Source: an uncultured bacterium (GTDB taxonomy: Bacteria; Hydrothermota; Hydrothermia; B15-G9; WFZT01). Taken from it: a stretch of DNA of 64,000 nt. A program made the translations under genes and the position numbers. The stretch is from the NCBI GenBank assembly GCA_964398355.1, contig CAYNMM010000082.1, forward strand, positions 711 to 64,710. The letters are read 5' to 3'. Shown here one piece after another: positions 16,657 through 36,151 of the stretch (positions within the stretch are counted from its first letter, which is position 1; every line of letters starts with the position of its first letter). The notes under the pieces were generated by a model. That model had not been told where the DNA came from. It worked only from the letters and a program-made list of their open reading frames with translations, and did no database searches.

Positions 16657-16657
16657 A

Positions 16658-20583: not shown

Positions 20584-20612
20584 TTGACAATTGGGTTTTA
20601 TGAATTTAAAAT
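20584..20612 (+). promoter_or_regulatory. Sigma-70-type promoter upstream of exbB (TTGACA-N17-TAAAAT)
   Basis: TTGACAAT at 20584-20591, a 17-nt spacer, then TAAAAT at 20607-20612, about 40 nt upstream of the exbB ATG. Confidence 0.55.
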
Positions 20613-20650
20613 GGACTATTGCGAAAAACAAAACTCAAGGAGGTTAGATA

Positions 20651-21289
20651 ATGCAAGGACTTGTTGAATATTTCAATAAGGGCGGTTCAATGATGTGGTT
20701 ACTCCTCATCCTGGCTATACTTGGAACCGTAATCATCATAGAGAGAATCATCACATTGCTCATTAAAGCAAGCACTAACCCAAGAAAACTTGTGGAAAAA
20801 GTCAAGACATTAATAGAAGAAGATGGCATTGATGCCGCAGTTGAATATTTGCAGAAAAATAAAAAGCCTATTGCAAAAGTTTTGCTTGCAGGACTTGAGA
20901 AAGTTCATAGGGGGAGAACAGTTGTTGAGGAAGCTATGGCAGCAAAAGCTTCCGCAGAAATGGGTTTTCTTGACAGAGGCATGATCTATCTTTCAGCAAC
21001 AGCGACCCTTGCACCAATTATCGGATTCTTGGGAACTGTTACTGGAATGATCAAAGCATTCCAGGCTATAGCACTTGCTGGTGAGGTGGAGCCAACACTG
21101 GTGGCTTCGGGTATTTCTGAAGCATTGATTACAACGGCTTCAGGTCTTTTAATAGCAGCTCCAGTATCTCTTTTTTATGCAATTTTCCAGTCAAAAATTA
21201 ATGGATATTCCAGGGCAACTGAAGAAGCTGCCAACGAACTTATTGAGTATTTACTCGAAAAAGAATATATTAAAGAAGAAAAAGCCTGA
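20651..21289 (+). CDS. exbB: MotA/TolQ/ExbB proton-channel family protein
   Basis: 212 aa with three transmembrane helices and the MotA/TolQ/ExbB C-terminal core (ALITTASGLLIAAPVSLFY). Confidence 0.85.
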   Translation: MQGLVEYFNKGGSMMWLLLILAILGTVIIIERIITLLIKASTNPRKLVEKVKTLIEEDGIDAAVEYLQKNKKPIAKVLLAGLEKVHRGRTVVEEAMAAKASAEMGFLDRGMIYLSATATLAPIIGFLGTVTGMIKAFQAIALAGEVEPTLVASGISEALITTASGLLIAAPVSLFYAIFQSKINGYSRATEEAANELIEYLLEKEYIKEEKA

Positions 21290-21303
21290 GGGAGGTAATA
21301 AAA

Positions 21304-21723
21304 TTGGCAATCTTTAGAAAAAGCAGGCCTCCTGAAGAAGCTGAAATCCCGACTGCTTCCATGGCAGATATAGCATTCCTGCTGATCATTTTTTTCATGA
21401 CTACCACAATATTTGCAAGAGATAAAGGTCTTAAACTTGTCTTGCCTGAGAAAACAACTGAAATTGTTAAAATAAAATCAAAAAACATTATAAAAATCTC
21501 TATCAATGATCAGGGGCAAATATTTGTAGGAGATAAACAGGTCACACTTGATCAAATCCAGCCTATTCTGAAAGAGAGACTTGCGAAGAACCCCAAGCTG
21601 ATAATTCTGATTAAGACACACGAGAAGGCACCTTACGATCGGATGATTCAGGTCTTTGACCAGGTGAAACAGGTGCCAGAAGCCAAAAGAGTGGCTCTCG
21701 GTATGATAAAAGCCGGAGGTTAG
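21304..21723 (+). CDS. exbD: ExbD/TolR biopolymer transport protein
   Basis: Single N-terminal transmembrane helix (IPTASMADIAFLLIIFFMTTTIF) plus a periplasmic domain; 139 aa. Confidence 0.85.
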   Translation: MAIFRKSRPPEEAEIPTASMADIAFLLIIFFMTTTIFARDKGLKLVLPEKTTEIVKIKSKNIIKISINDQGQIFVGDKQVTLDQIQPILKERLAKNPKLIILIKTHEKAPYDRMIQVFDQVKQVPEAKRVALGMIKAGG

Positions 21724-21728
21724 AAGAG

Positions 21729-22139
21729 ATGAAAATCGAACGGAAAAGAGAAATGAAAGTTAATATTCCCACTGCTTCAATGTCAGATATTGCTTTCCTG
21801 CTCCTTATCTTCTTTATGGTAACGACTGTCTTTAGAAAGGAAATCGGCCTAAAAGTTATCCTGCCAACCGCTAAAACGACCGAGCGCTTGATTAAGCAAA
21901 GGGACCTTGCTCATATCTATATTGATAAGGATGGTAGAATATCTGTCGATGATAAGATTGTTACACCAGAACAGGTGAAAGTAGCGTTTAAGATTAAACT
22001 TGCTGAGAACCCCTCAACGATTGCTTATATAAAAGCTGATAAAAGGGTCGAGTATAAATATGTAAATGAGGTAATGGACGCCCTACGAGATGCTCAGGCT
22101 TTCAGAGTGGTATTTGCTACCCTTTATCCCAAGAAATAA
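21729..22139 (+). CDS. exbD: ExbD/TolR biopolymer transport protein (second copy)
   Basis: A paralogue of the preceding gene (IPTASMSDIAFLLLIFFMVTTVF); 136 aa. Confidence 0.85.
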   Translation: MKIERKREMKVNIPTASMSDIAFLLLIFFMVTTVFRKEIGLKVILPTAKTTERLIKQRDLAHIYIDKDGRISVDDKIVTPEQVKVAFKIKLAENPSTIAYIKADKRVEYKYVNEVMDALRDAQAFRVVFATLYPKK

Positions 22140-22144
22140 ATAGG

Positions 22145-22172
22145 TTGACAATTAAGTTTGACGGAATATATA
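22145..22172 (+). promoter_or_regulatory. Sigma-70-type promoter upstream of tonB (TTGACA-N16-TATATA)
   Basis: TTGACAAT at 22145-22152, then TATATA at 22167-22172, about 30 nt upstream of the tonB ATG. Confidence 0.5.
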
Positions 22173-22202
22173 TACATTAACGAATCCATGTGAGGTGATT
22201 CT

Positions 22203-22853
22203 ATGAGTGAGAAAGAAAAAAAGAACCTATCCCTTGAGGATGAGTATGGCACAAATGTTTTGCTATCCTTGGGGATAGCACTTGCCTTATTTATAGCAAT
22301 TTTCGCCGGGATTAAAAAAGTTGAAGTAAGCCCTTATAAGCCAAAATCTGAAGTTACAACGATAGTTGAGGAAATAAATACGCAGGTGGAAGAGTTGAAA
22401 GAACCTCCTCCACCACCTAAACCTAAATTGCCCGTTGAAATTAAGGAGTCAAATGAAGTTTCTGATGAAGAGGAGAATCAGCAGGAAGAGCAGGAAATAG
22501 ATTTTTCTCCAACAACTACATTTAATGAGCTTGAGGCACCACCTCCGCCAAAAGTGGAGAAGACGTATGAGTTTTTCGCTGTCGAAGTTAAGCCAAAGGT
22601 AGTGAAACAGGTTGAACCTCAGTATCCTGATCTTGCGAGGAAAGCCGGGATTGAAGGTAGAGTATTTGTTAAGGTACTTGTAAACGAACAGGGGAGAGTA
22701 GATTCAGTTGTAGTTCTTAAAGCCACAAATCCAATTTTTATTAAACCAGCAATTGCGGCAGCTAAACAATTTGTTTTCACTCCTGGCAGGCAGAGGGATA
22801 AACCCGTAAAGGTCTGGGTGGCAATACCTTTTATCTTTAAACTTGAACAGTGA
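22203..22853 (+). CDS. tonB: Energy transducer TonB
   Basis: N-terminal transmembrane anchor, a Pro-rich spacer (EPPPPPKPKLP...APPPPK) and a C-terminal TonB domain (VEPQYPDLARKAGIEGRVFVKVLVNEQGRV); 216 aa. Confidence 0.85.
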   Translation: MSEKEKKNLSLEDEYGTNVLLSLGIALALFIAIFAGIKKVEVSPYKPKSEVTTIVEEINTQVEELKEPPPPPKPKLPVEIKESNEVSDEEENQQEEQEIDFSPTTTFNELEAPPPPKVEKTYEFFAVEVKPKVVKQVEPQYPDLARKAGIEGRVFVKVLVNEQGRVDSVVVLKATNPIFIKPAIAAAKQFVFTPGRQRDKPVKVWVAIPFIFKLEQ

Positions 22854-22877
22854 TGAGAAAAATAGGAGGTATGTAAT

Positions 22878-25800
22878 ATGCCCGTTAAAAAGTTAGTGGG
22901 AGTAATCTTGGCGTTAGGTGTGTTGTTTCAGCTTAATGCTGGAACAACGGGAAAAATAATGGGGAGAGTAATTGACGCAAAAACGAAGGAGCCCCTCCCC
23001 GCTGCAAATGTAATGATTGAAGGTACTAATATGGGAGCAGCTACAGATGTAGATGGTTACTATGTAATTCTAAATGTTCCCCCTGGTACATATACTCTTA
23101 AAGTTACATATCTGGGCTACAAAGAAAAAATCATTGAAGGTGTCCAGGTTAATATTGATAGAACAACTGAAGTTAATATTGAAATGGAGCCTGCTGTCTT
23201 GAAAACCAAAGAGGTGGTTGTTAAAGCTAAGAGACCGATAATTAAGAAAGACGTTACAGCAAGTGTAAATATTATCAGTAGTAAAGACATTAGCAATATT
23301 CCAGCTGTTAATAACGTTCAGCAAGTTGTAGCTCAGCAGGCAGGTGTTATTCTGGGTAGAGGAGGAGATTTACATATTAGAGGTGGTAGACAGGATGAGG
23401 TCGTATATATCATCGATGGTGTTGTAGTTAGGGATCCTTATGGAGGAGCAACTTTTGGGGCAGTTCCATTGCTATCACTTGAAGAGACTGAAATTAGTAA
23501 AGGTGGATTTGATGTTGATCAGGGATCAGCAGCGTCCGGTGCCATTTCAATTGTTACAAAAGAGGGACGTGATAAATATGCGATTAATCTGGCTTTAACA
23601 ACACATGACTTTTCATTCCTCGGAGATAAGGGATATGCATTTTTTGATAGAAATATTGGAGATCCCTATCTGGATTTTCTAACAGGAAAGAATCTTGATC
23701 TCACTTCCCTGGAAAATAGACATAGAGATCAGATGAAAAGGCTGGAATTCTCGTTCAGTGGGCCTTTTATCCCTTCTTATAGAAAAGGTCCCAAATTTTT
23801 CGTCTCAGGAGATATAACTTACGATAAAGGAAGATTCCCTGTATCCAATGACCCAGATTGGTATAATAAGAGTTATACTTATCAGTGGAAGTTTACGTTC
23901 CCTTATAAATCCATAAAGCTTTTCTATAGCGGTTTTCGTAGAACGAGACATGATGGTGGAGGGTATAGCGCAACATGGAGGTTGGCTCTTGATCACCAGA
24001 CATATTATGATGAGGAGCTAATGCAACATGTATTTGGAATTAATTATTTGATCACGCAGAGATCCTATCTGGAAGTTAGAGTGGGATTGTTCAAGGATTA
24101 TTTCTTGTATAATGATAAAGAGGATGTTGATGGCGATGGTGTAGATGACTTTGCTGATCGTGATAAAGATGGATTCATAGAGATTGATAAAAGTTATTTT
24201 GTAGATTCTCTTGGTAATTTTAGACGGGACATTCTTGATTCTCTATATCCTGGCTGGGAAGATCACGGGTCTTATGTTGAAGTTCCATATTATTGGTGGG
24301 AATCCAGAGTTGAGCAATTGTATCCTTCATTTGGTACCGGTCCTTCATGGTGGTCCAATGATTCGACAGGTCGCTATGCCCCTTATAACCACTTTGGTTG
24401 GGGGACAAGAGTACGTGTAGATATTTATGTTTTAGCTCTTGATAATGGTGACACAATTGCAATGATTAACAATAACTATTACACATTTCCGCTCAATGAT
24501 TTACCAAATCTAACACCTTATGTCCCACCTGATCCGACATGGACTACTGATTCAATTTCTGCTCATGTAGTTGATACAGTCCTTTTTGTCGGAAACCAGT
24601 ATATGCCGTTCAATTACGTATGGGATAGAAGTCAGTGGTATGAGGGTGAGAGTAAGTCTTTCAGTGTGAATGTAAGGTATACAAATCAGATCACAAGGCA
24701 TCACGAAATCCTGGCTGGCGTTGAATACAAGAGGAATGATATCGTTAGAGTAGGTGCTGATTACGCCAGTGGGGGGAATGTTTATTTAACACTCACAAAT
24801 CCATGGTACACAATAAGGAATAGATTTCCTCAGGATACGGCATACAATTTCTTGAAATGGTATAGAGATCACAAGATTTATCCTTGGACTTTCGCTGCCT
24901 ACTTGAGAGATAAGATAGAGATCGAAGGGATGGTTGCAAAGGTGGGGTTTAGATTTGATTACTTTAATCCGGATGGCTGGGTTATAAGCGATACTGCTAA
25001 TCCTTTTATGAGTGATCCTGAATGGGGTAATTTAGGGATTAAAATGATGAGAGATCCTAAGAAGGCATCTCCTAAATGGTATATTAGTCCAAGGATCGGT
25101 GTGTCCCATCCAATATCTGATAGAGATCTCTTACATTTCACTTATGGCCATTATTTCCAGATCCCCACGTTTAATACTATGATTAGAGATTTTGCATTTT
25201 CCGGTGCTTTCCCAATAATTGGAAATTCTGATATCGATCCAGAGAAAATAGTCTCTTATGAATTCGGTGTTAAGCACGCTTTCACTGACAATTTCGCTAT
25301 TGATGTGACAGCATACTACAAAGATATCCGTGACTGGGTTAGAATAAAACAGTTTAGTTATGGAATATCAGCAAACTACTCAACTTATGTAAATGAAGAT
25401 TACGGTTCATCCAGAGGAATAGAATTACAGATTTTGAAGAGACCTGGTGGTCGTTATCTCCCTAACATAGGAGTAAATATTAATTACACCTTCCAGGTTG
25501 CTCGTGGAAGTTTCTCAAGTCCCAGAAACGCTTATGACTGGATGTGGAGAGGCTATCCTTTACCCACACATGAATCACCACTTGATTGGGATGAAAGACA
25601 CCATGTAACAGCTACTGTAATGTATCTGGTAGGTAATAATGGCATACTGGGTGGGAGACTGAGGAACTTTGGTGTAATACTTCATTATCTATATGGAAGT
25701 GGATTCCCGTATACACCACCAATCAGGACAGAAAGGGATGCAGTGGAAAAGATAAATTCTGAGAGACTGCCAGCATATTCACGCACTGATTTAAGAATAT

Positions 25801-26006
25801 ACAAAGATTTTGGATTCAAGCTTCTTAAGGGGAAGATATATATTGATATAACAAATCTATTTAATAAAAAAGAACTCAGGACGTTCAATGATGTTAATAC
25901 ATATTATGTGCTTCATGAACCTGAAGGTGAGGTGAAAAATCCAACAGTGTGGTATCCGAGAAGGCAGACGACCCTTGGAATTCAATTTAGTATTAAAGGG
26001 TTTTAA
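22878..26006 (+). CDS. TonB-dependent outer-membrane receptor with an N-terminal carboxypeptidase-regulatory-like domain (SusC/RagA-like architecture)
   Basis: Signal peptide, then a CarbopepD_reg-like domain (GKIMGRVIDAKTKEPLPAANVMIEGTNMGAATDVDGYYVILNVPPGTYTL). A plug domain follows, then a long beta-barrel ending in an aromatic residue (…SIKGF); 1042 aa. Confidence 0.85.
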   Translation: MPVKKLVGVILALGVLFQLNAGTTGKIMGRVIDAKTKEPLPAANVMIEGTNMGAATDVDGYYVILNVPPGTYTLKVTYLGYKEKIIEGVQVNIDRTTEVNIEMEPAVLKTKEVVVKAKRPIIKKDVTASVNIISSKDISNIPAVNNVQQVVAQQAGVILGRGGDLHIRGGRQDEVVYIIDGVVVRDPYGGATFGAVPLLSLEETEISKGGFDVDQGSAASGAISIVTKEGRDKYAINLALTTHDFSFLGDKGYAFFDRNIGDPYLDFLTGKNLDLTSLENRHRDQMKRLEFSFSGPFIPSYRKGPKFFVSGDITYDKGRFPVSNDPDWYNKSYTYQWKFTFPYKSIKLFYSGFRRTRHDGGGYSATWRLALDHQTYYDEELMQHVFGINYLITQRSYLEVRVGLFKDYFLYNDKEDVDGDGVDDFADRDKDGFIEIDKSYFVDSLGNFRRDILDSLYPGWEDHGSYVEVPYYWWESRVEQLYPSFGTGPSWWSNDSTGRYAPYNHFGWGTRVRVDIYVLALDNGDTIAMINNNYYTFPLNDLPNLTPYVPPDPTWTTDSISAHVVDTVLFVGNQYMPFNYVWDRSQWYEGESKSFSVNVRYTNQITRHHEILAGVEYKRNDIVRVGADYASGGNVYLTLTNPWYTIRNRFPQDTAYNFLKWYRDHKIYPWTFAAYLRDKIEIEGMVAKVGFRFDYFNPDGWVISDTANPFMSDPEWGNLGIKMMRDPKKASPKWYISPRIGVSHPISDRDLLHFTYGHYFQIPTFNTMIRDFAFSGAFPIIGNSDIDPEKIVSYEFGVKHAFTDNFAIDVTAYYKDIRDWVRIKQFSYGISANYSTYVNEDYGSSRGIELQILKRPGGRYLPNIGVNINYTFQVARGSFSSPRNAYDWMWRGYPLPTHESPLDWDERHHVTATVMYLVGNNGILGGRLRNFGVILHYLYGSGFPYTPPIRTERDAVEKINSERLPAYSRTDLRIYKDFGFKLLKGKIYIDITNLFNKKELRTFNDVNTYYVLHEPEGEVKNPTVWYPRRQTTLGIQFSIKGF

Positions 26007-26020
26007 TGGAGGTTTTTGAC

Positions 26021-28075
26021 ATGAGGAAATTATTCATTATAGGGATATTTTTGGTGGGGATTTCTTTTGCGAGAGACAAAGGAATATCTCAGTATCAAAT
26101 TAAAGGCACGAGACCTTCAGATAAGATAATCAATCAAACGGTTGGACAGGTGTGGAATTACTTATCAAATTATGGGTCTCTTGGGGGTCAGGCGGGAGCA
26201 GATTATTATGGATTAAGCTGGCCTGGTGGTGCAGCTGTAAATAATTACTATCTATGGAACAGTTATTTTACAGTTGGGGCAAAGGTAGAAGGTACTCCTT
26301 ACATTTCCTACTATAATTATTATTTCTCGAACTGGAGCCCCTCGGATAATCCACCTATCTACGCCGGTCCAGGTAAATCTCCCTTTGATGTAGTTATGGC
26401 CTTTGATGACTTCAAAGACAGTCCGAGGCAGAGTCCGGGTAATCATCTTGGTGTTAAAGTGATTATTAGAAGTATGCAATGGCCGCAACCCCCCTATAAT
26501 AATTTTGTGGCTTATGAATTCTATATAACCTATGATGCTTCACAGTGTGATATTCCAGGCCATACGGATGTTCTACATGATGTCTTTATCGGGATGTGGT
26601 ATGACTGTGATGTTTCGGGAGCCGATCCAACAGAGCCACATATTGATGACCTTGTGTGTTTTGATGGGTGGACAAATGGAGAATGGGCAGATCTTGCGAA
26701 TTTCCCATCTCCTTCTGACCATCTGACAATCCTCCCGGATTCTGTAATCGACCAGCCAGATGGAGTTCCTGATCAATATATAATCTGGGGAGATGAACCT
26801 GGAGAGCTTGTTCTTGATTCTTCTCTTGCGGTTCCTTATGTAAGAAATGATACAACGTATATGGTTTACATTTTCCCACGCGGAGCATCATATATTTATG
26901 ACGGGGATAACCCTGCAGATCCTGGTGATGATACAGGAGAACACGGTATGTCTGCGGGTTATGTAGGTGGCATGTGGATTTATACTCCTCCATCTCCATC
27001 AGACTCTGTAATAGGTGATGCAAGGTTTGTTAGACCTTGGGCACATCAATGGTGGAACTGGAGTAGTGACCCTGCGACTCCAACAGATATTTATAATTAT
27101 TTAAGAGGGCATCATTCTGCAACAAAGTTTTACAGATATGCCCCTCATCCGTTTGATCTTGGAGCAGGCCCTTTCGATTACAGATTCCTGAACAGTGTGG
27201 GTCCATTCAACATAAGGAGTGGCGATACGCTCAAATTCGTATGGGTTGCTGGTGTAGGTCAGGGTTTAAGCGGAGGTTATGATTCATACTGGGGTAGAGG
27301 GTGGCTTCCTGGTTTGAGACAGGTTCTTGATGATGCTCTAAAAGCTTATTATGCAGGCTCAACTCATTCTGATCCGGCACATCCCTCAGCACCAGATGAA
27401 GATCAGCACTGGAGAATTCCGGTTCCTCCACCATCACCGCTCCTTGTATACTCTGTAACTTCTGATGGTATAAGACTGGTATGGGATGATCTCCCTGAGA
27501 GGACACCTGATCCATTGAAGGGTTATCCGGATATGGTTGGATATATTGTATATAGAGCTGTATATCAGCCGATAAACTGGACTGTCCTTGACACCATTAA
27601 AAGAAATCCAGACGGCACATTCACTCACACATATCTTGATACAACGGCTATTCCTGGATTTCAGTACTATTATGTGGTCACAGCTTATGATGAAGATAGT
27701 CTCGAATCTTCCAAGAATAATTATATGAAGGACGAGAATGGGAATCCGATGTATGTTACCATGAAATCCAAGATTGGTCGAAGCGTCGATGATGTGACGG
27801 TTGTACCTAATCCATATAAGGGCTCTGCCCCGTGGACAGCGACTGAGATAGCAGATAAGGTTGAATTTATTAATCTTCCTTCGACGTGTAGAATCACTAT
27901 TTATACACTTTCAGGATACAAAGTTAAAACTCTTGAGAATAAGGAAGGTAAAGGTTCTCTTGCCTGGAACTTATTGACAGATGCTGATATTAAAGTTCAG
28001 AGTGGAATATATATTTACAAGGTTGAGACCCCGGATGGCAAATATAAATTAGGGAAATTGGTAATTTTGAAATAA
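26021..28075 (+). CDS. Hypothetical secreted protein with an FN3-like region and a C-terminal T9SS sorting domain
   Basis: The start is placed at MRKLFIIGIFLVGISFA (signal peptide), 7 nt downstream of GGAGG. The protein is rich in W/Y/P/D. The C-terminal ~80 aa match the Por secretion tail pattern (VVPNPYKG...ITIYTLSGYKV...SGIYIYKVE...KLVILK). I recognise no catalytic motif. Confidence 0.7.
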   Translation: MRKLFIIGIFLVGISFARDKGISQYQIKGTRPSDKIINQTVGQVWNYLSNYGSLGGQAGADYYGLSWPGGAAVNNYYLWNSYFTVGAKVEGTPYISYYNYYFSNWSPSDNPPIYAGPGKSPFDVVMAFDDFKDSPRQSPGNHLGVKVIIRSMQWPQPPYNNFVAYEFYITYDASQCDIPGHTDVLHDVFIGMWYDCDVSGADPTEPHIDDLVCFDGWTNGEWADLANFPSPSDHLTILPDSVIDQPDGVPDQYIIWGDEPGELVLDSSLAVPYVRNDTTYMVYIFPRGASYIYDGDNPADPGDDTGEHGMSAGYVGGMWIYTPPSPSDSVIGDARFVRPWAHQWWNWSSDPATPTDIYNYLRGHHSATKFYRYAPHPFDLGAGPFDYRFLNSVGPFNIRSGDTLKFVWVAGVGQGLSGGYDSYWGRGWLPGLRQVLDDALKAYYAGSTHSDPAHPSAPDEDQHWRIPVPPPSPLLVYSVTSDGIRLVWDDLPERTPDPLKGYPDMVGYIVYRAVYQPINWTVLDTIKRNPDGTFTHTYLDTTAIPGFQYYYVVTAYDEDSLESSKNNYMKDENGNPMYVTMKSKIGRSVDDVTVVPNPYKGSAPWTATEIADKVEFINLPSTCRITIYTLSGYKVKTLENKEGKGSLAWNLLTDADIKVQSGIYIYKVETPDGKYKLGKLVILK

Positions 28076-28090
28076 ACAGGAGATAGTGTC

Positions 28091-29074
28091 ATGAAGAGGG
28101 TTTTAATAATTTTATCGATAGTCTTTCTGATTACATTGCCCAATGCTCTTACTGCCCAATCCAAAGTTGGTACCGCTGGAGCTAATTTTTTAGCGGTGCC
28201 TATTAATCCTGTTGCAATGGGTATGGGGGGAGCTTATGTTGCAGTTGCAGATGGTCCTTTAAGCAGTTTCTGGAATATAGCTGGAGTTGCGAATGTTAAA
28301 GATAATCTTGCCACTGGATTTGGTTATGTCAATTATGTGGCAGGAATTAACATTGGTGGTTTTGGTGTTGTTAAGAAGTTAGGATTAAGAGGTAACATTG
28401 CTTTCTTTGTCGGTGGATTAAACTCAGGTAGTATGGATAAATACAGTATTTCTCAAGATAGGGGAATTATAAATGAAGGTACGTTTACTTATTCAAGTGA
28501 ACAAATTGGTATAGGATTTGCCAGATACTTTACCGATAAGTTTGCCTCAGGTGTTGCGGTAAAATTAATCCATGAGAGTGTTAGTGGAGAAACAAGCTCA
28601 CTTGGATTTGCTGTTGATGTTGGAACCTATTTCTGGACTGGATTCAAAAGTCTACGAATCGCAATGTCTATGCAAAATATTGGTCCGGATATGAAATTTA
28701 GCGGAACCTATAAACAATACATTTACTCCGGTAATGAGGTAGTTACTGAAGATAGGGAATATAATTCGTATCCGATTCCTCTTAATTTCAGACTTGGAGC
28801 TGCTATGGAGATTATAGATCAACCAGATAAACGTTTAACAGTTTCAGTTGAGAGTAATCATCCCAGTGATTTTGATCAGACCTTTGCTGTAGGAGCAGAG
28901 TTTGCATTCAGGAATATGCTCTATTTGAGAGGAGGATATAATTTTGGATTAGACCTTGGTGGTCTTGGTCTTGGTTTTGGAATTAAATTGAAGTCAATTT
29001 CTTTTGATTACGCGTATTCTGACATGGGTGAGTGGCCTGATGTCCATAGGATCTCAATAAACTTTGTCAAATAA
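28091..29074 (+). CDS. PorV/PorQ-like outer-membrane beta-barrel protein (probable T9SS-associated)
   Basis: Signal peptide, then a conserved N-terminal segment GTAGANFLAVPINPVAMGMGGAYVAVADGPLSSFWNIAG of the kind seen in PorV/PorQ-family proteins. The rest alternates G/aromatic beta-strands; 327 aa. Confidence 0.5.
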   Translation: MKRVLIILSIVFLITLPNALTAQSKVGTAGANFLAVPINPVAMGMGGAYVAVADGPLSSFWNIAGVANVKDNLATGFGYVNYVAGINIGGFGVVKKLGLRGNIAFFVGGLNSGSMDKYSISQDRGIINEGTFTYSSEQIGIGFARYFTDKFASGVAVKLIHESVSGETSSLGFAVDVGTYFWTGFKSLRIAMSMQNIGPDMKFSGTYKQYIYSGNEVVTEDREYNSYPIPLNFRLGAAMEIIDQPDKRLTVSVESNHPSDFDQTFAVGAEFAFRNMLYLRGGYNFGLDLGGLGLGFGIKLKSISFDYAYSDMGEWPDVHRISINFVK

Positions 29075-29080
29075 AATGGA

Positions 29081-30220
29081 GTGGGAATTATGAAAAGGTT
29101 AACAGGTATAGGAATTATTTTAATTGCTTTAGCGTTTGTAGGGTGTGGCGTGAAAAATAATCCTCCTACAGGACCTTCTGTAATTGACAGAGGGGCTGAC
29201 TATTTTAATGAACAGGGTTGGCTGAAGTATAGTCAGGGGGATTATTATGCTGCAAAGGCAAATTTTGACACTGTGTTAAGCATGATTTCTCCTGAGAATA
29301 TAGATGCTTATCTCGGTATTTCAATGGCCATGAAGCAGATTGGTGAATACAGTAGAGCTCATGGTTATGTAACTATGGCTATTACAGTTGCCAACCAGGA
29401 GAGACAGGTGATAGAAAAATTGAGGAAATTCCTTGTGCAAACTGTGAGTCCTATTAACGATACACTTGCATGGATGACTTTTGATACGACAAATATCGCC
29501 TTTGTTAATAAAATGGAAATTTCAGTAACCCTTGCAAATACGAGATACCATAATCTGGATTCAGCTGCGGTTTATGATACATTATACGGTGGGCCGGCTG
29601 GCGCGAAGATTTACTTTAAGGTAATGAGTTACAGCTTTGATGGTGATTCAGTGCTTATTTCATGGGACAATGAGAAGAACTTTACTTCAAACACTACGTA
29701 TTTTTACGAACGCACAGATTTACCACCAGACAGTATGTCCGTGGACACAACTTTGTATTTACCTGATAGCATAGTAGTTGATACAACTTATTATTATCCT
29801 ATAGATACCCTTCAGCTCGTTCGTTGTTTACCCCTCCCCGGTGATACGGTTGTTGCTAATGTGGCGTATGTTATTGGGGGTAATAATGACGTAGAGAATG
29901 CTGCTCATATAGTAGATGGTGCCGTCTACTTCGCTGCCGGTGATTATCTGAATGCGATAAAATGGATGAGAGCCAGTATGTTGATGAGTGATAATTTTGC
30001 ATATAATGCTCCGTATGCGGATTCACTCCCAGGAAAACTTATAAACACAAGAAACGCCAAGATTCTATTAGCACAGTCTTTTTACAATCTCGGTATGTAT
30101 AGGGATGCAGCCTATGTGGTCAATAATCTTTATGGTCGAATCGTTGTAGATCCTGAAAACCCTGATATTCATCTTTTATTTAACAGCATTGTGGAATTGA
30201 GAAACCAGGGAGGTCTATAA
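29081..30220 (+). CDS. TPR-like lipoprotein of unknown function
   Basis: Lipobox ALAFVGCG. The N-terminus has TPR-like helices (QGWLKYSQGDYYAAKANFDTVL...AYLGISMAMKQIGEY); 379 aa. Confidence 0.55.
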   Translation: MGIMKRLTGIGIILIALAFVGCGVKNNPPTGPSVIDRGADYFNEQGWLKYSQGDYYAAKANFDTVLSMISPENIDAYLGISMAMKQIGEYSRAHGYVTMAITVANQERQVIEKLRKFLVQTVSPINDTLAWMTFDTTNIAFVNKMEISVTLANTRYHNLDSAAVYDTLYGGPAGAKIYFKVMSYSFDGDSVLISWDNEKNFTSNTTYFYERTDLPPDSMSVDTTLYLPDSIVVDTTYYYPIDTLQLVRCLPLPGDTVVANVAYVIGGNNDVENAAHIVDGAVYFAAGDYLNAIKWMRASMLMSDNFAYNAPYADSLPGKLINTRNAKILLAQSFYNLGMYRDAAYVVNNLYGRIVVDPENPDIHLLFNSIVELRNQGGL

Positions 30221-30221
30221 A

Positions 30222-33200
30222 ATGAGAAGGGTTCTATATTTCTTCATCAGTATCTCCTTTGTTTTTATTGGGAGAATGAACGCCCAGCAATTTTCGGTAG
30301 GAGATACAGCCACTTTTAAATACTATGACGCAGGATTCTTTAGCGGTTTTTATACTGCAAAATATTTGTGTAGAGCTGTCACAGATAATGCATACATATT
30401 TAGCGAAGAGGTTCCATATCAAATAACAAAAGTCTACGTGGGTAATGGCCAGGTCATAGTTTTCGATCCCGCTAAGAAGTACTATCGCAAATTAAATGAT
30501 AACGACGTATTTTCTATTTTCGGTTATTCTGAGGATACGACATCATTGATCTATAACCTGAATCACACCGGGAAAGCTGCAATAAAACTTCTTAGAACGG
30601 GTGGTATTCAATTTTATACAGTGACGACGCAAGGATTATACCTTTATAACGTTTCTAATTGGTCCCTCAGATTGCCAAGACGTGATCTTGTTGATGTTGC
30701 CGTTTCTCCTAAAGTTCCTACATCTATAATAGGGTATTTCCCGTATTTCCTTGCAAAATATTCAATACTTACCACACTGAGAACGCCTTTAGGCAGAGTA
30801 ATCAAGTTGCCTCATGACCTCTTTATCGATGATGGATTTGAACCCGATTATTCCGAAGATACTTTACTTACTGATTGGACAACATCAGGAAACGTTAGCG
30901 TTGTCAGGTCTATTTTAATTTCCATACCCCACTATTTGATGCACCTCTCTGGGAATGCCAGTGCTTCAAAGTCATTTTCCTTACCAGCTACTATGTTTAA
31001 ATTTGAAATAACCCCAGTAATCACCCGCAACACTCCTGATGGTGTTGTTAGTTTCGAGGATCAATCCGGCACTTCAGCATTTTCTCTTACGTTCTTAGGT
31101 GATTCACTATTTTTGAATGGCAATAATTTGGGTGAATTCCAGCCATATAGTGTGCAGAAGATTGAGGGTGTCGTTAATATAAATGATGGATTATTGCAGA
31201 TTTATTTGAATGACTCCCTCGTCTACGATGATTCGAACTATACATTTGATGTCTCTCAGGTGTCCAAATTACAGATTTCATTAAATAGTGGTGAGCTGTT
31301 TTTAGATGACATCGCTGCTCAACCTATCGTATATACTATTGTTGGACATCATTCTAACAAGAACGCTTTTTATCTTGGTGCTGCGGATGGGCTTTATTTA
31401 TATAACTCTGGCACCTGGTCGAAAATTTATGACGGAAATGTGAGAATTGTGAGGCCAGTTAGTGACAACACTGTCTACATATTGTCTGATAATCTTATAT
31501 TGAAGACTGAGGATGGTGGAGCGAGCTGGGATACGTTGCCATCAACTACACTTGACTCAGTATATGATTTTGCGGTAAATCCTGATAATACTGACTTGTT
31601 GGTTGCTGTGGGAGTACCAGGAATTGTTAAATTTGCAGATGGTAGCTGGCAAAATATATCCGACTCTTTACTCAATTGGTCACCTCCAGAATTTGTTGAT
31701 ACAATTTACTCCGTTGGCTATTTAGATGATTCTACTATTGTTATTGGTACAGGACAGGGTGTTTTTATGAGTGAGGGAACCATTGAAAATCTTGTTGAGA
31801 AAAATAAAGGTATCTTAAAGAGTTTTATCACGAATGATGGTGTACAGTTGCTTGCTCAATATGTGGATAGTGCGTATACGACTATGAACACTTTCTTTGA
31901 TGGACTTGCAAGGGATGTGGATAATGATCCCAGAGTTTACGTGCTTGCAGGTGACTTGTCTGCAAAGCTTACCTCCGGGGAGACCAAAATTATTCCCATT
32001 CTCGGTGTCATGAATCCTGAACTGAATTATGTAGAGGATGCCAATCATCCACATGGCGATGGTCATGAAATAATAGAGATTGATGTGTATGATGATAGTT
32101 TAAATCAGTACGTTTCTTCAGCTTATGAGACCTGGAAATATGCGACTTATAGAGCAATGGCCAAACTGTTTTTCTGGACGCATGATACTAAGGAGGAGAA
32201 CTGGTTAATTGAAGGAATCGGGGGACTTGGTGAATACCTTGCAAAATACAATCCAGGTGATCCAGATACCGCAGAATATGAATTGAGCCCCCTTTATAGC
32301 TTGAAAAAAATCTTGGTAACTCCTTATAAGGTTGATCAATACGTTGCCAGTTTAAATAGACCATATCTCTTCCTTCTCCATTTATGGGCGAAATATGGCA
32401 TTCAGACACTACAATCTATTTATTCAGACGCAACTATTCCATCATCAGTTGTGGGATTAGCAAGAATAGCAAGAATTACTGGAGTCGATCAAAACGATCT
32501 TTATAAAGAATGGATTCTGGATGTATTTAAACATGAGAATATGGATCTCACACCTAATTTGAATGTTAATCTTATCGAAAGGTTGTTCCCTCCTTATTAT
32601 TCCACGATACAGTCATTATCTGATTGGTCATTCGGTGGATTTCAAATAGTGTTGACACAAAATGATACTCTCAATTATCTGAGATTTAACGGTGTCAATA
32701 TTAATGATTCAAGTGAATTTGATGTTTATTATGGGATCAGTGGTGGTACTCTCCACCATGTAACAGATTGGGGAGCTAATGGTGATAGAGTAATAACAGG
32801 ACTGACGAATACACAAGACACAACGGTATATAACTTCATTGTATTTTTTGCTGATAGTCAATTGTCTGACAATACTGCACTTTCTTATGCTGTTAAGAAG
32901 GATACAATTCCACCAACGGTGGATGTTGGTTATTTCCAGAATAGCCTTGCTGATAGGAATATTAATGTTTATTTATTTACAAATGAGCGGTTATTCGATG
33001 AGGTTATTGACACCATACCATCTCTTTATCTTATTTCAGGTCTTGATACAACGACAGCAGATCTCTCAATCTTCGACTCTTATAACGATACAATTATTTA
33101 TTCTTCAAACTTTACTCTCTCAAGTACCGGTAAGATTTATCTCAAAGCATCGCTACAAGATTTTGCTGGAAATGCAGTAGAAATAAGTGATTCTGTCCTT

Positions 33201-33830
33201 GCCTGGTATTTGCAGAGCGGTAGCAAACTCACTTTCACTGGATTTGATGGTGAAATATTACTCGAAATACCGGAAAACGCGATCTCAGTAGGGGGTTATG
33301 CTATTTACTCTATCTCAAATGGTGGTTTCTATAAAGTCTCCAATCCGGTTTATGTCTTCCCAAATGTACAGCTGAAATCGCCTGCTCGTGTGGAGTTAAA
33401 TTTGCCCAATGATGGAAAGAAAGATTATCACGTTTATGTCTGGTACAAAGGAACCTGGCATGACGCTGGTGGAATGCTGACGCCATCTGGAGACAGAATA
33501 GTTGCTTATATTAATACTCTTGGCCCATTAACATTGATGCAGACAAATGGTATTATACCACGGAGGTTTGCGTTTAAGCTTCTGGGCTCTCCAGTGATTC
33601 TCTCTAAAAAAGTATCCTTTGAGGTCTCTGTCCCTCATCCTACAAAGTTGAGCGTAAAAGTATACAACTTAAGTGGTAGAGAAGTCGCAAAATTGTTCGA
33701 TGGTAACATTAGTTCTGGTAAGTACAACTTTAGCTGGAGGGTTGAAAGTTTGCGTAATGGAGTATATTTCATTGTCGTAAAAGATTTGAGGAGTGGCGTA
33801 AGATTTTCTAAAAAAGTTGTAAAGTTTTGA
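30222..33830 (+). CDS. Large hypothetical secreted protein (1202 aa) with a BNR/Asp-box-like repeat and a C-terminal T9SS sorting domain
   Basis: Signal peptide MRRVLYFFISISFVFIGRMNAQQ. Asp-box-like TEDGGASWDT. C-terminal Por tail (KLSVKVYNLSGREVAKLFDG...NGVYFIVVKD...KVVKF). Confidence 0.7.
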   Translation: MRRVLYFFISISFVFIGRMNAQQFSVGDTATFKYYDAGFFSGFYTAKYLCRAVTDNAYIFSEEVPYQITKVYVGNGQVIVFDPAKKYYRKLNDNDVFSIFGYSEDTTSLIYNLNHTGKAAIKLLRTGGIQFYTVTTQGLYLYNVSNWSLRLPRRDLVDVAVSPKVPTSIIGYFPYFLAKYSILTTLRTPLGRVIKLPHDLFIDDGFEPDYSEDTLLTDWTTSGNVSVVRSILISIPHYLMHLSGNASASKSFSLPATMFKFEITPVITRNTPDGVVSFEDQSGTSAFSLTFLGDSLFLNGNNLGEFQPYSVQKIEGVVNINDGLLQIYLNDSLVYDDSNYTFDVSQVSKLQISLNSGELFLDDIAAQPIVYTIVGHHSNKNAFYLGAADGLYLYNSGTWSKIYDGNVRIVRPVSDNTVYILSDNLILKTEDGGASWDTLPSTTLDSVYDFAVNPDNTDLLVAVGVPGIVKFADGSWQNISDSLLNWSPPEFVDTIYSVGYLDDSTIVIGTGQGVFMSEGTIENLVEKNKGILKSFITNDGVQLLAQYVDSAYTTMNTFFDGLARDVDNDPRVYVLAGDLSAKLTSGETKIIPILGVMNPELNYVEDANHPHGDGHEIIEIDVYDDSLNQYVSSAYETWKYATYRAMAKLFFWTHDTKEENWLIEGIGGLGEYLAKYNPGDPDTAEYELSPLYSLKKILVTPYKVDQYVASLNRPYLFLLHLWAKYGIQTLQSIYSDATIPSSVVGLARIARITGVDQNDLYKEWILDVFKHENMDLTPNLNVNLIERLFPPYYSTIQSLSDWSFGGFQIVLTQNDTLNYLRFNGVNINDSSEFDVYYGISGGTLHHVTDWGANGDRVITGLTNTQDTTVYNFIVFFADSQLSDNTALSYAVKKDTIPPTVDVGYFQNSLADRNINVYLFTNERLFDEVIDTIPSLYLISGLDTTTADLSIFDSYNDTIIYSSNFTLSSTGKIYLKASLQDFAGNAVEISDSVLAWYLQSGSKLTFTGFDGEILLEIPENAISVGGYAIYSISNGGFYKVSNPVYVFPNVQLKSPARVELNLPNDGKKDYHVYVWYKGTWHDAGGMLTPSGDRIVAYINTLGPLTLMQTNGIIPRRFAFKLLGSPVILSKKVSFEVSVPHPTKLSVKVYNLSGREVAKLFDGNISSGKYNFSWRVESLRNGVYFIVVKDLRSGVRFSKKVVKF

Positions 33831-33861
33831 AATTAATCAAACTAAAAAGGAGGTAAATGTT

Positions 33862-36087
33862 ATGAAGAAGTATAAAGTGTTAGGTCTAATAGCTGCTCTG
33901 ATGTTCGTTGTTGGAACATCGAGAGCTGAGCTCGCTATCCTGACACCGGTGAATTCCAAAACGGGCCACAGTGATATTATCCCACTGAAAGATGCCAGAA
34001 AGGTGTCAGCTTTTATGCACAGTATACAGGCTAAGGGAGTGATAGACACCATTTCCTATTTCGATGTGAACAGTTTCTATATATATTCAGGTATAGATGT
34101 TGGTGATACAATGGTTGAGTGGTTTAAATCGGTAGCGGCATGTTCACTCCAGGCTGCTTACATGTATGTATTGAACAAGTATACTGCAAATAGTCAGGCA
34201 TACTTCTTCGTCTCTGGAGTTCCTGATTCACTTGCGCCAGTGTTTGATTCAACGTGGTATTATGGGATTGGACATCACTGGTATGACTATCACTTTGGTG
34301 CATCTTACTCTCTTCCTCCTGGTCCCTCTCCTATTGCGTATGATTCTGTATATTATAGCACAACTGTAAATGTCACTGGAGATACTTTGTTTTTACTCGG
34401 TAATTCTCTTCCGAACGCAGTTGATGTAGGAACGAAACCATTCCTTGTGGGATTCACACCTCTTACAGATGGGAGTGGTAGTTCTGATGAGCCCTGGGCA
34501 ATTATCAGTGCTGGTGCAGCTGGAAATAATTACGGATATCATGCCCTTGTATATCAACAGGATTTTGGTTCATCTTTCCCTGGAGCATCCCCTGGATGGT
34601 ATGCTAACTGGCATACATATTGGGCATACGCCATAGTTAATATTTATGAAAACCCGGCTCCATTCATCAATTCCGTTACGAAGTTACCCTGGACTTACGA
34701 CCTCGATGGTCCATTTACCATTCAGGCAGATTTGAATGATTTTGGTGTCCCTTCTGATTCATCAGGAGTTGCTTATGCAGAACTGGAAGTTTGGGTCGGC
34801 TCAGATGCCACTGATACTCTCCATATCCCAATGACGCTCGTAAGTGGAGATTCTACAGCAGGAATATGGCAAGCAGTTTATACACCTTCGACTGCTTTGA
34901 ACGTTGGTGACACTGTATTCTACACAGTAATGGCAAGAGATGTTCAGGGAGCTGAATCATACTATAGTCATATCTATTTCTTCTCCACGCTTCAGCAGAC
35001 CACAAACCAGATTCTTTATGTACTTGATGCAGGTGCAGCTACAAGGGATAGGGATGTAGATTTTGCCTCTGTATTCCAGGCATTGGGTTATCAGGTTGAC
35101 GTGTACGATGCTTATCATTGGGGTTCACCAGATGCGACTGTTCTCCTTGGTCAAGGTGGATATTCCCAGCCTTATCAGATGGTTTTCTGGACAGGTTGGG
35201 GAAGTGGAGCTTTCGCTGCTGACACAGCTTTAATTGCCCAGTATCTCGACAATGGTGGAAAACTTGTAATCTCTGATGAAGATTTTGTCGTTGGTGGATT
35301 TGGACTTGGAGACTATGGTCAGTGGACTGACATACCAGAGGGAAGTTTCCTTTACAACTATCTGAAGATCGCTTCCGTATTTGATGATTATGTTGGTACA
35401 TCCCCTGATGATGGAGGATACACTGCAAACTCCGATACAATTATCAGCCTCACTGGAGAGGCAACGAATCCAGTTGGACAGGCTTTCGCTAACGATTCAA
35501 TAACACTCTATCCTTACGCTCATCAGGTCGACAGTACAACCTACGGCAGTTACAACTACGTCGGTGCTGTGATTAATAATGGTGAAGCAAGTGATGCATT
35601 CTATATGCCTGATGGAACCCCAACAGCTATTACTTACAATGGTACATACAGAGCTGCAGTTCTTTATTGGCCATTCACTTATCTTGTTGACTCTGTGACT
35701 GTTGATACATCAGGTGCTGTAACAGGATTTGTTTATGATCAAACAAGGACACAGACACTTATGTCAGCACTCATAAACTTCCTCACTACTGGAGTTGCAG
35801 AATCCAATCCTACTCCGGTGAATGGGCTGAAACTTGCTGTAAGGAACAACCTTGCCCTTAACGGAAAAGTTTCCATAAGCTTTGCTATTCCTACGGCTGG
35901 TAAAGTGGATGTTTCCGTATTCGATGCGTCTGGAAGGAAAGTGACAACACTGTTTAGTGGAAATCTCAATAAAGCCGGACTGTACACTACGCACTGGAAT
36001 GCAGATGGTGTAAGACCAGGTGTGTACTTCGTGAGATTGCAGACGAATGCAGGTTCTCTCACAAAGAAAGCGATGATCCTTAAGTAA
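33862..36087 (+). CDS. Hypothetical secreted protein (741 aa) with a C-terminal T9SS sorting domain
   Basis: Signal peptide MKKYKVLGLIAALMFVVGTSRA. The central region has a GATase1/ThuA-like flavour (GGKLVISDEDFVVGG). C-terminal Por tail (KVDVSVFDASGRKVTTLFSG...PGVYFVRLQTNAGSLTKKAMILK). Confidence 0.7.
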   Translation: MKKYKVLGLIAALMFVVGTSRAELAILTPVNSKTGHSDIIPLKDARKVSAFMHSIQAKGVIDTISYFDVNSFYIYSGIDVGDTMVEWFKSVAACSLQAAYMYVLNKYTANSQAYFFVSGVPDSLAPVFDSTWYYGIGHHWYDYHFGASYSLPPGPSPIAYDSVYYSTTVNVTGDTLFLLGNSLPNAVDVGTKPFLVGFTPLTDGSGSSDEPWAIISAGAAGNNYGYHALVYQQDFGSSFPGASPGWYANWHTYWAYAIVNIYENPAPFINSVTKLPWTYDLDGPFTIQADLNDFGVPSDSSGVAYAELEVWVGSDATDTLHIPMTLVSGDSTAGIWQAVYTPSTALNVGDTVFYTVMARDVQGAESYYSHIYFFSTLQQTTNQILYVLDAGAATRDRDVDFASVFQALGYQVDVYDAYHWGSPDATVLLGQGGYSQPYQMVFWTGWGSGAFAADTALIAQYLDNGGKLVISDEDFVVGGFGLGDYGQWTDIPEGSFLYNYLKIASVFDDYVGTSPDDGGYTANSDTIISLTGEATNPVGQAFANDSITLYPYAHQVDSTTYGSYNYVGAVINNGEASDAFYMPDGTPTAITYNGTYRAAVLYWPFTYLVDSVTVDTSGAVTGFVYDQTRTQTLMSALINFLTTGVAESNPTPVNGLKLAVRNNLALNGKVSISFAIPTAGKVDVSVFDASGRKVTTLFSGNLNKAGLYTTHWNADGVRPGVYFVRLQTNAGSLTKKAMILK

Positions 36088-36114
36088 ATTAGGATGAGAT
36101 AGATTTGGAATATT

Positions 36115-36151
36115 GGCGGGGCAGGCCACATTAGTGGCCTGCCCCGCCTTT
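36115..36151 (+). terminator. Rho-independent terminator hairpin (13-bp GC-rich perfect stem, 8-nt loop, then TTT)
   Basis: GGCGGGGCAGGCC-acattagt-GGCCTGCCCCGCC followed by TTTCAATC, directly after the 741-aa T9SS cargo gene. Confidence 0.75.

Follow-up and report, generated by a model that had tools for sequence, protein, structure and literature searches.

A conserved gene cluster from a Hydrothermota bacterium that may encode a TonB-dependent uptake complex with surface parts placed by type IX secretion

This analysis concerns a cluster of ten genes in a stretch of 64,000 nucleotides, hereafter the window, of an uncultured bacterium of the Hydrothermota (GenBank assembly GCA_964398355.1, contig CAYNMM010000082.1). 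The cluster brings together Ton energisation genes, a TonB-dependent transporter (TBDT), three proteins with type IX secretion system (T9SS) sorting tails, an outer-membrane barrel of the PorV/PorQ family and a tetratricopeptide repeat (TPR) lipoprotein, and it may encode a TonB-dependent uptake complex of the outer membrane. An earlier reading of the same DNA, made from the letters alone (the sequence-only reading), had placed nine of the ten open reading frames (ORFs) on one strand; in fact all ten lie on the + strand and span 20651-36087. That they are almost contiguous was correctly seen, as the intergenic gaps range from -1 to 63 nt. In the order 5' to 3' exbB, exbD, exbD, tonB, TBDT, 689-aa, PorV-like, TPR lipoprotein, 1202-aa and 741-aa, the genes encode:

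20651..21289, + strand: ExbB/TolQ-family proton channel (PF01618, MotA_ExbB, 99.5 bits; under the ExbB and TolQ equivalog cut-offs)
21304..21723, + strand: ExbD/TolR family protein 1 (PF02472, 91.7 bits)
21729..22139, + strand: ExbD/TolR family protein 2 (PF02472, 96.8 bits)
22203..22853, + strand: TonB, C-terminal domain at residues 138-214 (PF03544, TonB_C, 70.7 bits; TIGR01352, 54.4 bits)
22878..26006, + strand: TBDT of 1042 aa with signal peptide, CarboxypepD_reg extension, plug and 22-strand-type barrel, from Pfam hidden Markov models (HMMs)
26006..28075, + strand: 689-aa T9SS protein, proposed surface partner of the TBDT, with 207 homologues, all unnamed or hypothetical
28091..29074, + strand: PorV/PorQ-family outer-membrane barrel of 327 aa (NF033709), proposed dock for the 689-aa protein
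29081..30220, + strand: TPR lipoprotein with lipobox ...AFVGC, starting at GTG 29081 or ATG 29090 (signal peptide, TPR matches)
30222..33830, + strand: 1202-aa T9SS protein, matching end to end a profile of 29 other-clade relatives (E 7e-150)
33862..36087, + strand: 741-aa T9SS protein with few full-length homologues, its N-terminal ~280 residues of no assigned fold

Pfam matches confirm the first five genes as exbB-exbD-exbD-tonB followed by a TonB-dependent receptor, as the sequence-only reading had it. The TBDT passes the general criteria for transporters of this type, with a plug (PF07715, 41.2 bits, cut-off 23.9) and a barrel (PF00593, 79.1 bits, cut-off 27), and its N-terminal extension matches PF13715 (CarbopepD_reg_2) at 81.2 bits. 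The earlier description of the receptor as SusC-like has to be abandoned, since it reaches 91.8 bits against a cut-off of 368.25 on the SusC/RagA model TIGR04056 and the match is confined to residues 26-193 (model positions 2-167 of 981), that is, to the N-terminal extension. The combination of CarboxypepD_reg extension, plug, barrel and adjacent Ton cluster is the architecture of the Oar subclass.

The gene directly after the TBDT encodes the 689-aa protein, whose true start is likely Met6 at 26021. HMM searches recognised only its T9SS tail (TIGR04183, 26.3 bits, cut-off 23), and its AlphaFold2 model is of good quality (pLDDT 87, pTM 0.80). The following domains were delimited:

26123..27355, + strand: residues ~40-450, galactose-mutarotase-like beta-supersandwich, a carbohydrate-binding fold of the glycoside-hydrolase type, here lacking an attached catalytic domain
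27437..27700, + strand: residues ~478-565, FN3-like domain
27797..28072, + strand: residues ~598-689, special PorZ/PorU-like C-terminal domain (profile against PDB, tail HMMs)

No glycoside hydrolase, polysaccharide lyase or carbohydrate esterase family was matched by any protein of the locus in the HMM searches. The 689-aa protein reaches 15.8 bits against the PorZ equivalog NF052228 (cut-off 260), a match confined to the tail, and where PorZ has a double beta-propeller as its body, the 689-aa protein has the supersandwich and FN3 domains instead. Its homologues occur in metagenome-assembled genomes of WOR-3, Hydrothermota/Hydrothermales, Caldipriscus, Stahlbacteria, TA06, Cloacimonadota, Calditrichota, KSB1, LCP-89, Zixibacteria and Neomarinimicrobiota, the nearest species representative sharing 83% identity, and by these relatives the window belongs to a WOR-3/Hydrothermota-type genome. 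Long forms of 1400-1600 aa, with the supersandwich near the C-terminus followed by a T9SS tail, were also observed, and two of them (L085 196-4434 and L086 1049-5572) have no neighbouring TBDT or PorV-like gene. Lone 689-like genes are found as well in Stahlbacteria (L005/L006) and in L031, and the small ORFs 3' of stand-alone genes (L005, L031, L085) show no relationship among themselves.

The next gene encodes the barrel, for which the earlier assignment to a PorV/PorQ-like family holds: it scores 179.5 bits on NF033709 (cut-off 90), a family model that all 36 of the 36 relatives tested match too, and it matches PorV in the PDB (6h3i, E 8e-4). It fails the equivalog models for PorQ (NF033711, 97.5 bits, below 220), PorV (NF033710, 63.6 bits, below 250) and PorV2 (55 bits, below 325). 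The recognition of three T9SS-sorted proteins was likewise correct, the 689-aa, 1202-aa and 741-aa proteins all passing the T9SS type A model TIGR04183 (26.3, 27.1 and 37.0 bits, respectively; cut-off 23), and their tails fall into two classes. The profile of the 689-aa family, searched against the whole PDB, matches only the tails of PorZ (5m11, E 1.7e-4) and PorU (6za2, E 1.5e-3), whereas the profiles of the 1202-aa and 741-aa families match ordinary cargo tails (8glj_D, 8glk_D, RgpB) and not PorZ/PorU. Tail HMMs, one per family and built from the last 95 residues, gave the following mean scores in bits:

689-aa family tails: 689-type HMM 117, 1202-type ~25, 741-type ~24
1202-aa family tails: 689-type HMM 32.5, 1202-type 94.6, 741-type 79.4
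741-aa family tails: 689-type HMM 38.1, 1202-type 96.4, 741-type 115.3

From these cross-scores it follows that the tails of the 1202-aa and 741-aa families are interchangeable and distinct from that of the 689-aa family. PorZ and PorU are precisely those two T9SS proteins that keep their tails and remain bound to PorQ and PorV, respectively, and it has been proposed in a review that cognate PorV-like barrels shield such tails against cleavage (PMC10202324). By analogy, the tail of the 689-aa protein would stay uncleaved and bound to a cognate PorV-like barrel, because it is nearest to those of PorZ and PorU, forms a class of its own and is encoded next to a barrel gene. The sequence-only reading had regarded the barrel as a cargo shuttle embedded among three T9SS substrates; since only the 689-aa family carries the special PorZ/PorU-like tail, a fixed dock for the 689-aa protein, in the manner of PorQ and PorZ, is a better reading of the barrel than a roaming shuttle for all three.

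Gene order was compared in 80 loci, one genome per species, which were collected via an alignment of the 689-aa family and whose ORFs were classed by window-seeded profiles; the denominators of the linkage counts are the loci with enough flanking sequence. The order TBDT, 689-like, PorV-like, 1202-like, TPR and a further protein with a T9SS C-terminal domain (CTD) is nearly universal and extends over WOR-3, Calditrichota, KSB1, LCP-89, Zixibacteria, Marinimicrobia, Cloacimonadota and others, amounting to at least nine candidate lineages. The TBDT gene stands immediately 5' of the 689-like gene in 58/60 loci (median gap 13.5 nt) and the PorV-like gene immediately 3' of it in 67/71 (median gap 10 nt), while a TPR lipoprotein is present in 49 and a recognisable 1202-like protein in 45 of 53 loci. 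Ton genes lie immediately upstream in 27/53 loci, exclusively of the WOR-3/Hydrothermota type. The TPR gene is found 5' of the 1202-like gene in the window and a few relatives and 3' of it elsewhere. This order is kept while identity drops to 32-35% within the 689-aa family and to about 18% within the 1202-aa family. The linkage of the locus genes is not accidental: across the candidate phyla sampled, the genes grouped by the sequence-only reading are linked and not scattered.

Part of this arrangement recurs with other proteins in the central position. Two loci (L026 and L068) each contain a second, tandem TBDT / CTD protein / PorV-like unit, whose middle proteins (995 and 1107 aa) carry unrelated heads and score 72.5 and 63.7 bits with the 689-type tail HMM and ~18-21 bits with the generic ones. 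An exhaustive search with the 689-family profile returned 1090 cluster representatives at E <= 1e-30, many of which share the FN3-plus-tail part alone. Five of these, which combine another head with the special tail, were looked up for their neighbours, and all four with flanking sequence (L087, L089, L090 and L091) are encoded between a CarboxypepD_reg-type TBDT and a PorV-like barrel; the fifth has a Peptidase_M28 head (117 bits) and lies on a contig (L088) too short for neighbours. No relatives of the 1202-aa, TPR or 741-aa proteins were found in these loci. Because the three-gene unit recurs with other heads and without those genes, the minimal conserved unit is a TBDT, a head-FN3-special-tail protein and a PorV/PorQ-family barrel, and the window locus is a deeply conserved type of this unit with three further genes. 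GWxTD-domain proteins (PF20094) follow some of the other-head units (L089 9145-10548; L090 7862-9448 and 10863-12230), and in L090 an outer-membrane efflux protein also follows the paralogous unit.

Among the three further genes, the first encodes the lipoprotein, in which TPRs had rightly been suspected: the single protein matches them weakly, its family profile matches canonical TPRs in the PDB strongly, and besides the signal peptide the lipobox Cys is invariant in 33 relatives. That the locus has no recognisable SusD was also confirmed, in that none of the ten proteins has a SusD match in Pfam and the TPR family profile finds canonical TPRs only in the PDB; the TPR lipoprotein as a SusD homologue is thus ruled out. 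Comparison of several of these lipoproteins (window 29081-30220; L004 17390-18331; L068 17114-18268; L054 17090-18208; L073 17559-18452) revealed a conserved acidic motif after the lipobox Cys outside WOR-3, for example CEDQSENIP, CDESSEDVPT or CSDKSDNIPT, in place of which the WOR-3 proteins have CGVKNNPP. Acidic lipoprotein export signals occur in Bacteroidota, and by analogy the TPR lipoprotein could be surface-exposed in some lineages.

The two remaining T9SS proteins are composite. Word-indexed homologue searches yielded 4 close full-length relatives for the 1202-aa and 5-6 for the 741-aa protein, and the domains were assigned as follows, the first three lines referring to the 1202-aa and the last three to the 741-aa protein:

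31347..31808, + strand: residues ~376-529, BNR/sortilin-type beta-propeller core (family profile)
31824..32606, + strand: residues ~535-795, M30 (hyicolysin/lugdulysin)-like domain that lacks the zinc site (family profile)
33573..33824, + strand: residues ~1118-1201, generic T9SS type A CTD (TIGR04183, 27.1 bits)
34708..34986, + strand: residues ~283-375, Ig-like domain, approximate limits (family profile)
35008..35781, + strand: residues ~383-640, GATase1/ThuA/GIFT-like alpha/beta domain (weak model)
35830..36084, + strand: residues ~657-741, generic T9SS type A CTD (TIGR04183, 37.0 bits; PF18962, 28.3 bits)

The 1202-aa family is very divergent, with identities down to about 18%, and the window protein alone matches nothing in the PDB, lugdulysin included. 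The family profile has its strongest match to the M30 peptidase lugdulysin (7bb8, E 1.2e-31, over 266 profile positions), followed in the propeller region by the sensor propeller of a hybrid two-component system (HTCS; 3ott, E 2e-15) and by GH74 xyloglucanases (E 6e-14 to 1e-13); NF045728 matches residues 415-476. HExxH occurs in 0/33 members of the family, the aligned positions being occupied by other residues, nor is the third zinc ligand conserved, for which reasons the M30-like domain is regarded, on the alignment, as a conserved pseudopeptidase with a binding or structural role; an active metallopeptidase is ruled out by the absence of HExxH. The 741-aa family profile matches the Ig domain that precedes the tail of the peptidylarginine deiminase PPAD of P. 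gingivalis (5ak8/4ytg, E 2e-6), and the protein is tentatively modelled as having a GATase1/GIFT-like domain, apparently without the nucleophile Cys. A PorU/C25-like sortase was considered for it and rejected, as neither C25 nor NF033707 is matched and the fold search leads to GATase1/GIFT. In agreement with the sequence-only reading, which recognised no catalytic motif in the three cargo proteins, HMM, profile and fold searches found no ordinary enzyme among them, and all three look non-catalytic.

The transcription signals of the locus were read from consensus and folding:

20584..20612, + strand: sigma-70-like promoter candidate TTGACA-17-TAAAAT in the 75-nt gap 5' of exbB, matching 11/12 positions, the best in the region
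20637..20643, + strand: Shine-Dalgarno sequence AAGGAGG, 7 nt 5' of the exbB ATG, read from the sequence
36115..36148, + strand: GC-rich hairpin of 15 bp with loop ATTA, then TTTCAAT, a likely operon end

The strong promoter claimed earlier for the start of the locus stands insofar as it is the best sigma-70 match of the region, although such sites are not enriched overall (48 observed against 54.7 expected). The internal promoter proposed before tonB does not stand, since the perfect TTGACA at 22145 is accompanied by a merely TATATA-like -10 element and fails the promoter scan. The strong terminator is upheld for its hairpin (minimum free energy -43.6 kcal/mol, z -7.3, equalled by 0/200 shuffles) and not for its U-tract, which is weak. 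The gene 3' of the hairpin probably starts at ATG 36162.

The flanks consist of housekeeping genes, with aroK/aroB, aroQ, ppx and a dprA-like gene upstream, and manC-like, DUF92, pgm, cstA and tRNA synthetase genes downstream. In the other phyla, too, the upstream neighbours of the locus are housekeeping genes, such as tig-clpP-clpX-engB, gltX-surA-lptE-pilT-pilT or rny. In the window, aroK and aroB are fused in one ORF of 514 aa (shikimate kinase and 3-dehydroquinate synthase; 16637-18181, + strand), which is followed by a type II dehydroquinase gene. The DprA-like ORF of 268 aa (19769-20575, + strand) matches only positions 2-72 of 212 of DNA_processg_A and may be truncated or divergent. Further away, a 779-aa ORF (11292-13631, - strand) has a sub-threshold Glucosamine_iso match as its sole Pfam signal, and a 244-aa ORF (7742-8476, + strand) has no Pfam match. 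The window also contains the gene of a mannosyl-3-phosphoglycerate synthase (48776-49960, - strand; PF09488, 486 bits); this enzyme makes a compatible solute that is characteristic of thermophiles, in agreement with a source in a hydrothermal system or hot spring. The window also encodes an M1 aminopeptidase (2752-4641, - strand) and the carbon starvation protein CstA (40532-42253, - strand), which is a peptide transporter, and this pair hints at a peptide-using lifestyle of the organism.

Taken as a whole, the locus is most readily understood, with a probability that we put at roughly one half, as a TonB-dependent outer-membrane uptake complex whose surface parts are placed by the T9SS and not as lipoproteins. 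In such a complex the 689-aa protein would cross the outer membrane through the T9SS, and its tail would stay uncut and bound to the neighbouring PorQ-like barrel, as in PorZ-PorQ and PorU-PorV. Docking in this way would hold the supersandwich head beside or over the TBDT, where it would capture the substrate and pass it to the pore, as SusD does in SusCD and BtuG does on BtuB. The 1202-aa and 741-aa proteins, which carry ordinary cargo tails, would probably serve as accessory binders attached to the cell surface, and the TPR lipoprotein would act as a scaffold. Judging by the folds, the substrate may be a glycan, or else glycosylated or peptide material. Secretion route, physical association, surface location and direction of transport are all deduced from sequence; no SprA/Sov or GldK-N genes lie within the 64-kb window. 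The dedicated cell-surface complex postulated by the sequence-only reading on the analogy of SusC/SusD thus gains from the conserved linkage, and its remark on a missing SusD is borne out, while the transporter is not a SusC and the Ton genes belong to the WOR-3/Hydrothermota-type loci only.

An uptake function is favoured over a role in a secretion machine because the plug and barrel of the TBDT are intact, because a complete Ton operon accompanies it in WOR-3, and because heads diversify on a constant TBDT-anchor pair, the special tail being found on a peptidase head as well. Diversifying heads on a constant transporter-anchor pair are also a feature of SusC/SusD-type uptake systems. Several observations weigh on the other side. 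The YidC periplasmic domain also matches the supersandwich of the 689-aa protein, so that the fold is no proof of sugar binding, and both the surface location of this protein and the retention of its tail are drawn by analogy. The model of the 741-aa protein is poor overall (pLDDT 46.6) because it has few relatives. The six-gene type is mostly single-copy among housekeeping genes, which fits a core envelope function better, and in LCP-89 (L004, NJBN01000004.1, 21679-22271) a PorU-like protein of 1276 aa with Propeptide_C25/Peptidase_C25 and a T9SS tail is encoded directly 3' of the module. PorF (PG0534) of P. gingivalis is a TonB-dependent-receptor-like T9SS component whose role is not established, which makes a secretion-related role of the barrel possible, and Oar, the architecture and own Ton cluster of which are matched by the window TBDT, is needed for protein export.

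These observations lead to the alternative that survives best, although it is unlikely, namely that the module serves these phyla as a housekeeping component of their T9SS secretion and attachment machinery and does not import nutrients. The barrel would then correspond to PorQ, the 689-aa protein to PorZ, with its retained tail and supplying the anchoring glycolipid, the TBDT to PorF, the TPR lipoprotein to a PorW-like connector and the generic-tail proteins to the major surface-coat cargo. The affinity of the 689-aa tail to those of PorZ and PorU fits this assignment, as do the barrel's scores, which are higher with the PorQ model (97.5 bits) than with that for PorV (63.6 bits), the description of PorZ as carbohydrate-binding, the conserved and poorly characterised nature of PorF, the deep conservation of the full module, mostly as one copy per genome beside housekeeping genes, and the C25 peptidase gene after it in LCP-89. 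Yet the equivalog models for PorZ, PorQ, PorV and PorU are failed by wide margins, the head is a supersandwich and not a double propeller, and in P. gingivalis the locus tags of porF, porZ and porQ lie far apart (PG0534, PG1604, PG0602). A TBDT with a normal plug behind a full Ton operon also speaks against it, and a three-gene unit that is duplicated with different heads, and a tail that occurs on an M28 head, are hard to square with a single machine component.

It is distinctly improbable that the TBDT works outward in the manner of Oar, with Ton-energised export or insertion of the special-tail protein or of other cargo that the PorV-like barrel receives. Oar is a TBDT with a CarboxypepD_reg extension, is encoded beside ExbB/ExbD/TonB genes of its own and is needed for the secretion of PopC (PMC6434023); the window TBDT and Ton genes have the same architecture, and a TBDT and a PorV-like barrel always accompany the special tail. 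However, the CarboxypepD_reg extension is universal in importing SusC-type transporters too, the Ton genes are adjacent in little more than half of the loci, and all three large proteins pass TIGR04183, by which another export route is already implied. A variant, which we hold to be at best similarly improbable, sees in the TBDT and the PorV/PorQ-like barrel an own TonB-energised export or insertion route for the special-tail protein, which would act outward like Oar or be related to, but simpler than, the SprA-PorV translocon; on this view the three-gene unit would secrete and display the protein by itself and would not be an importer that depends on the classical T9SS. An operon of convenience, in which a general Ton system and TBDT stand beside T9SS cargo to which they are unrelated and a surplus PorV paralogue, and share no function with them, is highly improbable. 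The evidence for an interaction of the locus proteins is indirect, and promoter and terminator were called from consensus matches alone, but the synteny at 18-35% identity across phyla with gaps of ~10 nt, the correlation of tail class with gene position and the independent recurrence of the three-gene arrangement with other heads strongly disfavour it. The Bacteroidota BAM (barrel assembly machinery) complex with its FadL-like BamG was set aside as a model, as no BamA or BamD is involved.

If the locus is indeed an uptake complex, its interest extends beyond the window. In Bacteroidota the surface partners of TBDTs are lipoproteins flipped to the cell surface, and we know of no account of how the sister phyla within the FCB (Fibrobacterota-Chlorobiota-Bacteroidota) group equip their TonB-dependent transporters. 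The locus suggests another solution, in which a T9SS-secreted partner is clipped by its retained tail to a dedicated PorQ-like barrel beside the TBDT. The docking principle of PorZ-PorQ would thereby extend from a component of the secretion machine to a family of uptake systems, and a function would be given to many 'hypothetical' or 'T9SS sorting domain' proteins of WOR-3, Calditrichota, KSB1, Zixibacteria, Marinimicrobia and Cloacimonadota. In addition, the genomic signature of a TBDT, a special-tail protein and a PorV-like barrel would flag uptake loci where the susC/susD rule fails. The conserved pseudo-M30 domain and, tentatively, the GIFT-like domain join the known non-catalytic surface modules. 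These findings are of interest for the T9SS, for TonB-dependent transport and for the physiology of uncultured FCB lineages; searches of the open-access literature for this arrangement and for the T9SS in these phyla found no prior description of it.

With respect to known systems, the closest parallel is offered by SusC/SusD (RagA/RagB), the utilisomes and BtuB-BtuG, in which the gene of a CarboxypepD_reg TBDT is likewise followed by that of a non-catalytic surface binder; SusC/SusD-type systems also have further surface binders in the operon and paralogous units with different heads. The locus looks like an undescribed counterpart of these uptake complexes of Bacteroides. Unlike SusC, however, the window TBDT fails the SusC/RagA model (91.8 versus 368 bits), its partner is a beta-supersandwich with a T9SS tail and not a SusD-fold lipoprotein, a PorV/PorQ-family barrel is an obligatory third member, and glycoside hydrolase, lyase and regulator are absent from the window locus. 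With neither a SusD-family lipoprotein gene beside the TBDT nor carbohydrate-active enzymes, the locus lies outside the definition of a polysaccharide utilisation locus. The three-gene system is moreover one of WOR-3, Calditrichota, KSB1 and related lineages and not of the classical Bacteroidota.

On the side of the T9SS, PorQ-PorZ and PorV-PorU of P. gingivalis likewise pair a PorV/PorQ-family barrel with a T9SS protein that has a PorZ/PorU-like tail, and PorZ, too, binds carbohydrate. The window proteins differ from them in failing all four equivalogs and in a head fold unlike that of PorZ, and their genes stand side by side, next to that of a TBDT, in a unit that has multiplied with different heads. 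PorF (PG0534/PGN_1437), a TBDT-like barrel with a functional link to T9SS cargo, is likened to the window TBDT by description. Oar of Myxococcus xanthus, compared by architecture, shares the CarboxypepD_reg extension, plug and barrel and the position beside exbB, exbD and tonB, but is implicated in the export of PopC and comes without a PorV-like barrel or CTD proteins. The peptidases of family M30 (hyicolysin, and lugdulysin 7bb8) are homologous at profile level to the central domain of the 1202-aa protein (E 1.2e-31), from which they differ in that the 1202-aa family (33 members) lacks HExxH and the third zinc ligand and combines the domain with a propeller and a T9SS tail in one protein. 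In conclusion, the locus would combine two known principles, that of a transporter with a surface binder and that of a retained-tail protein on a PorV-like barrel.

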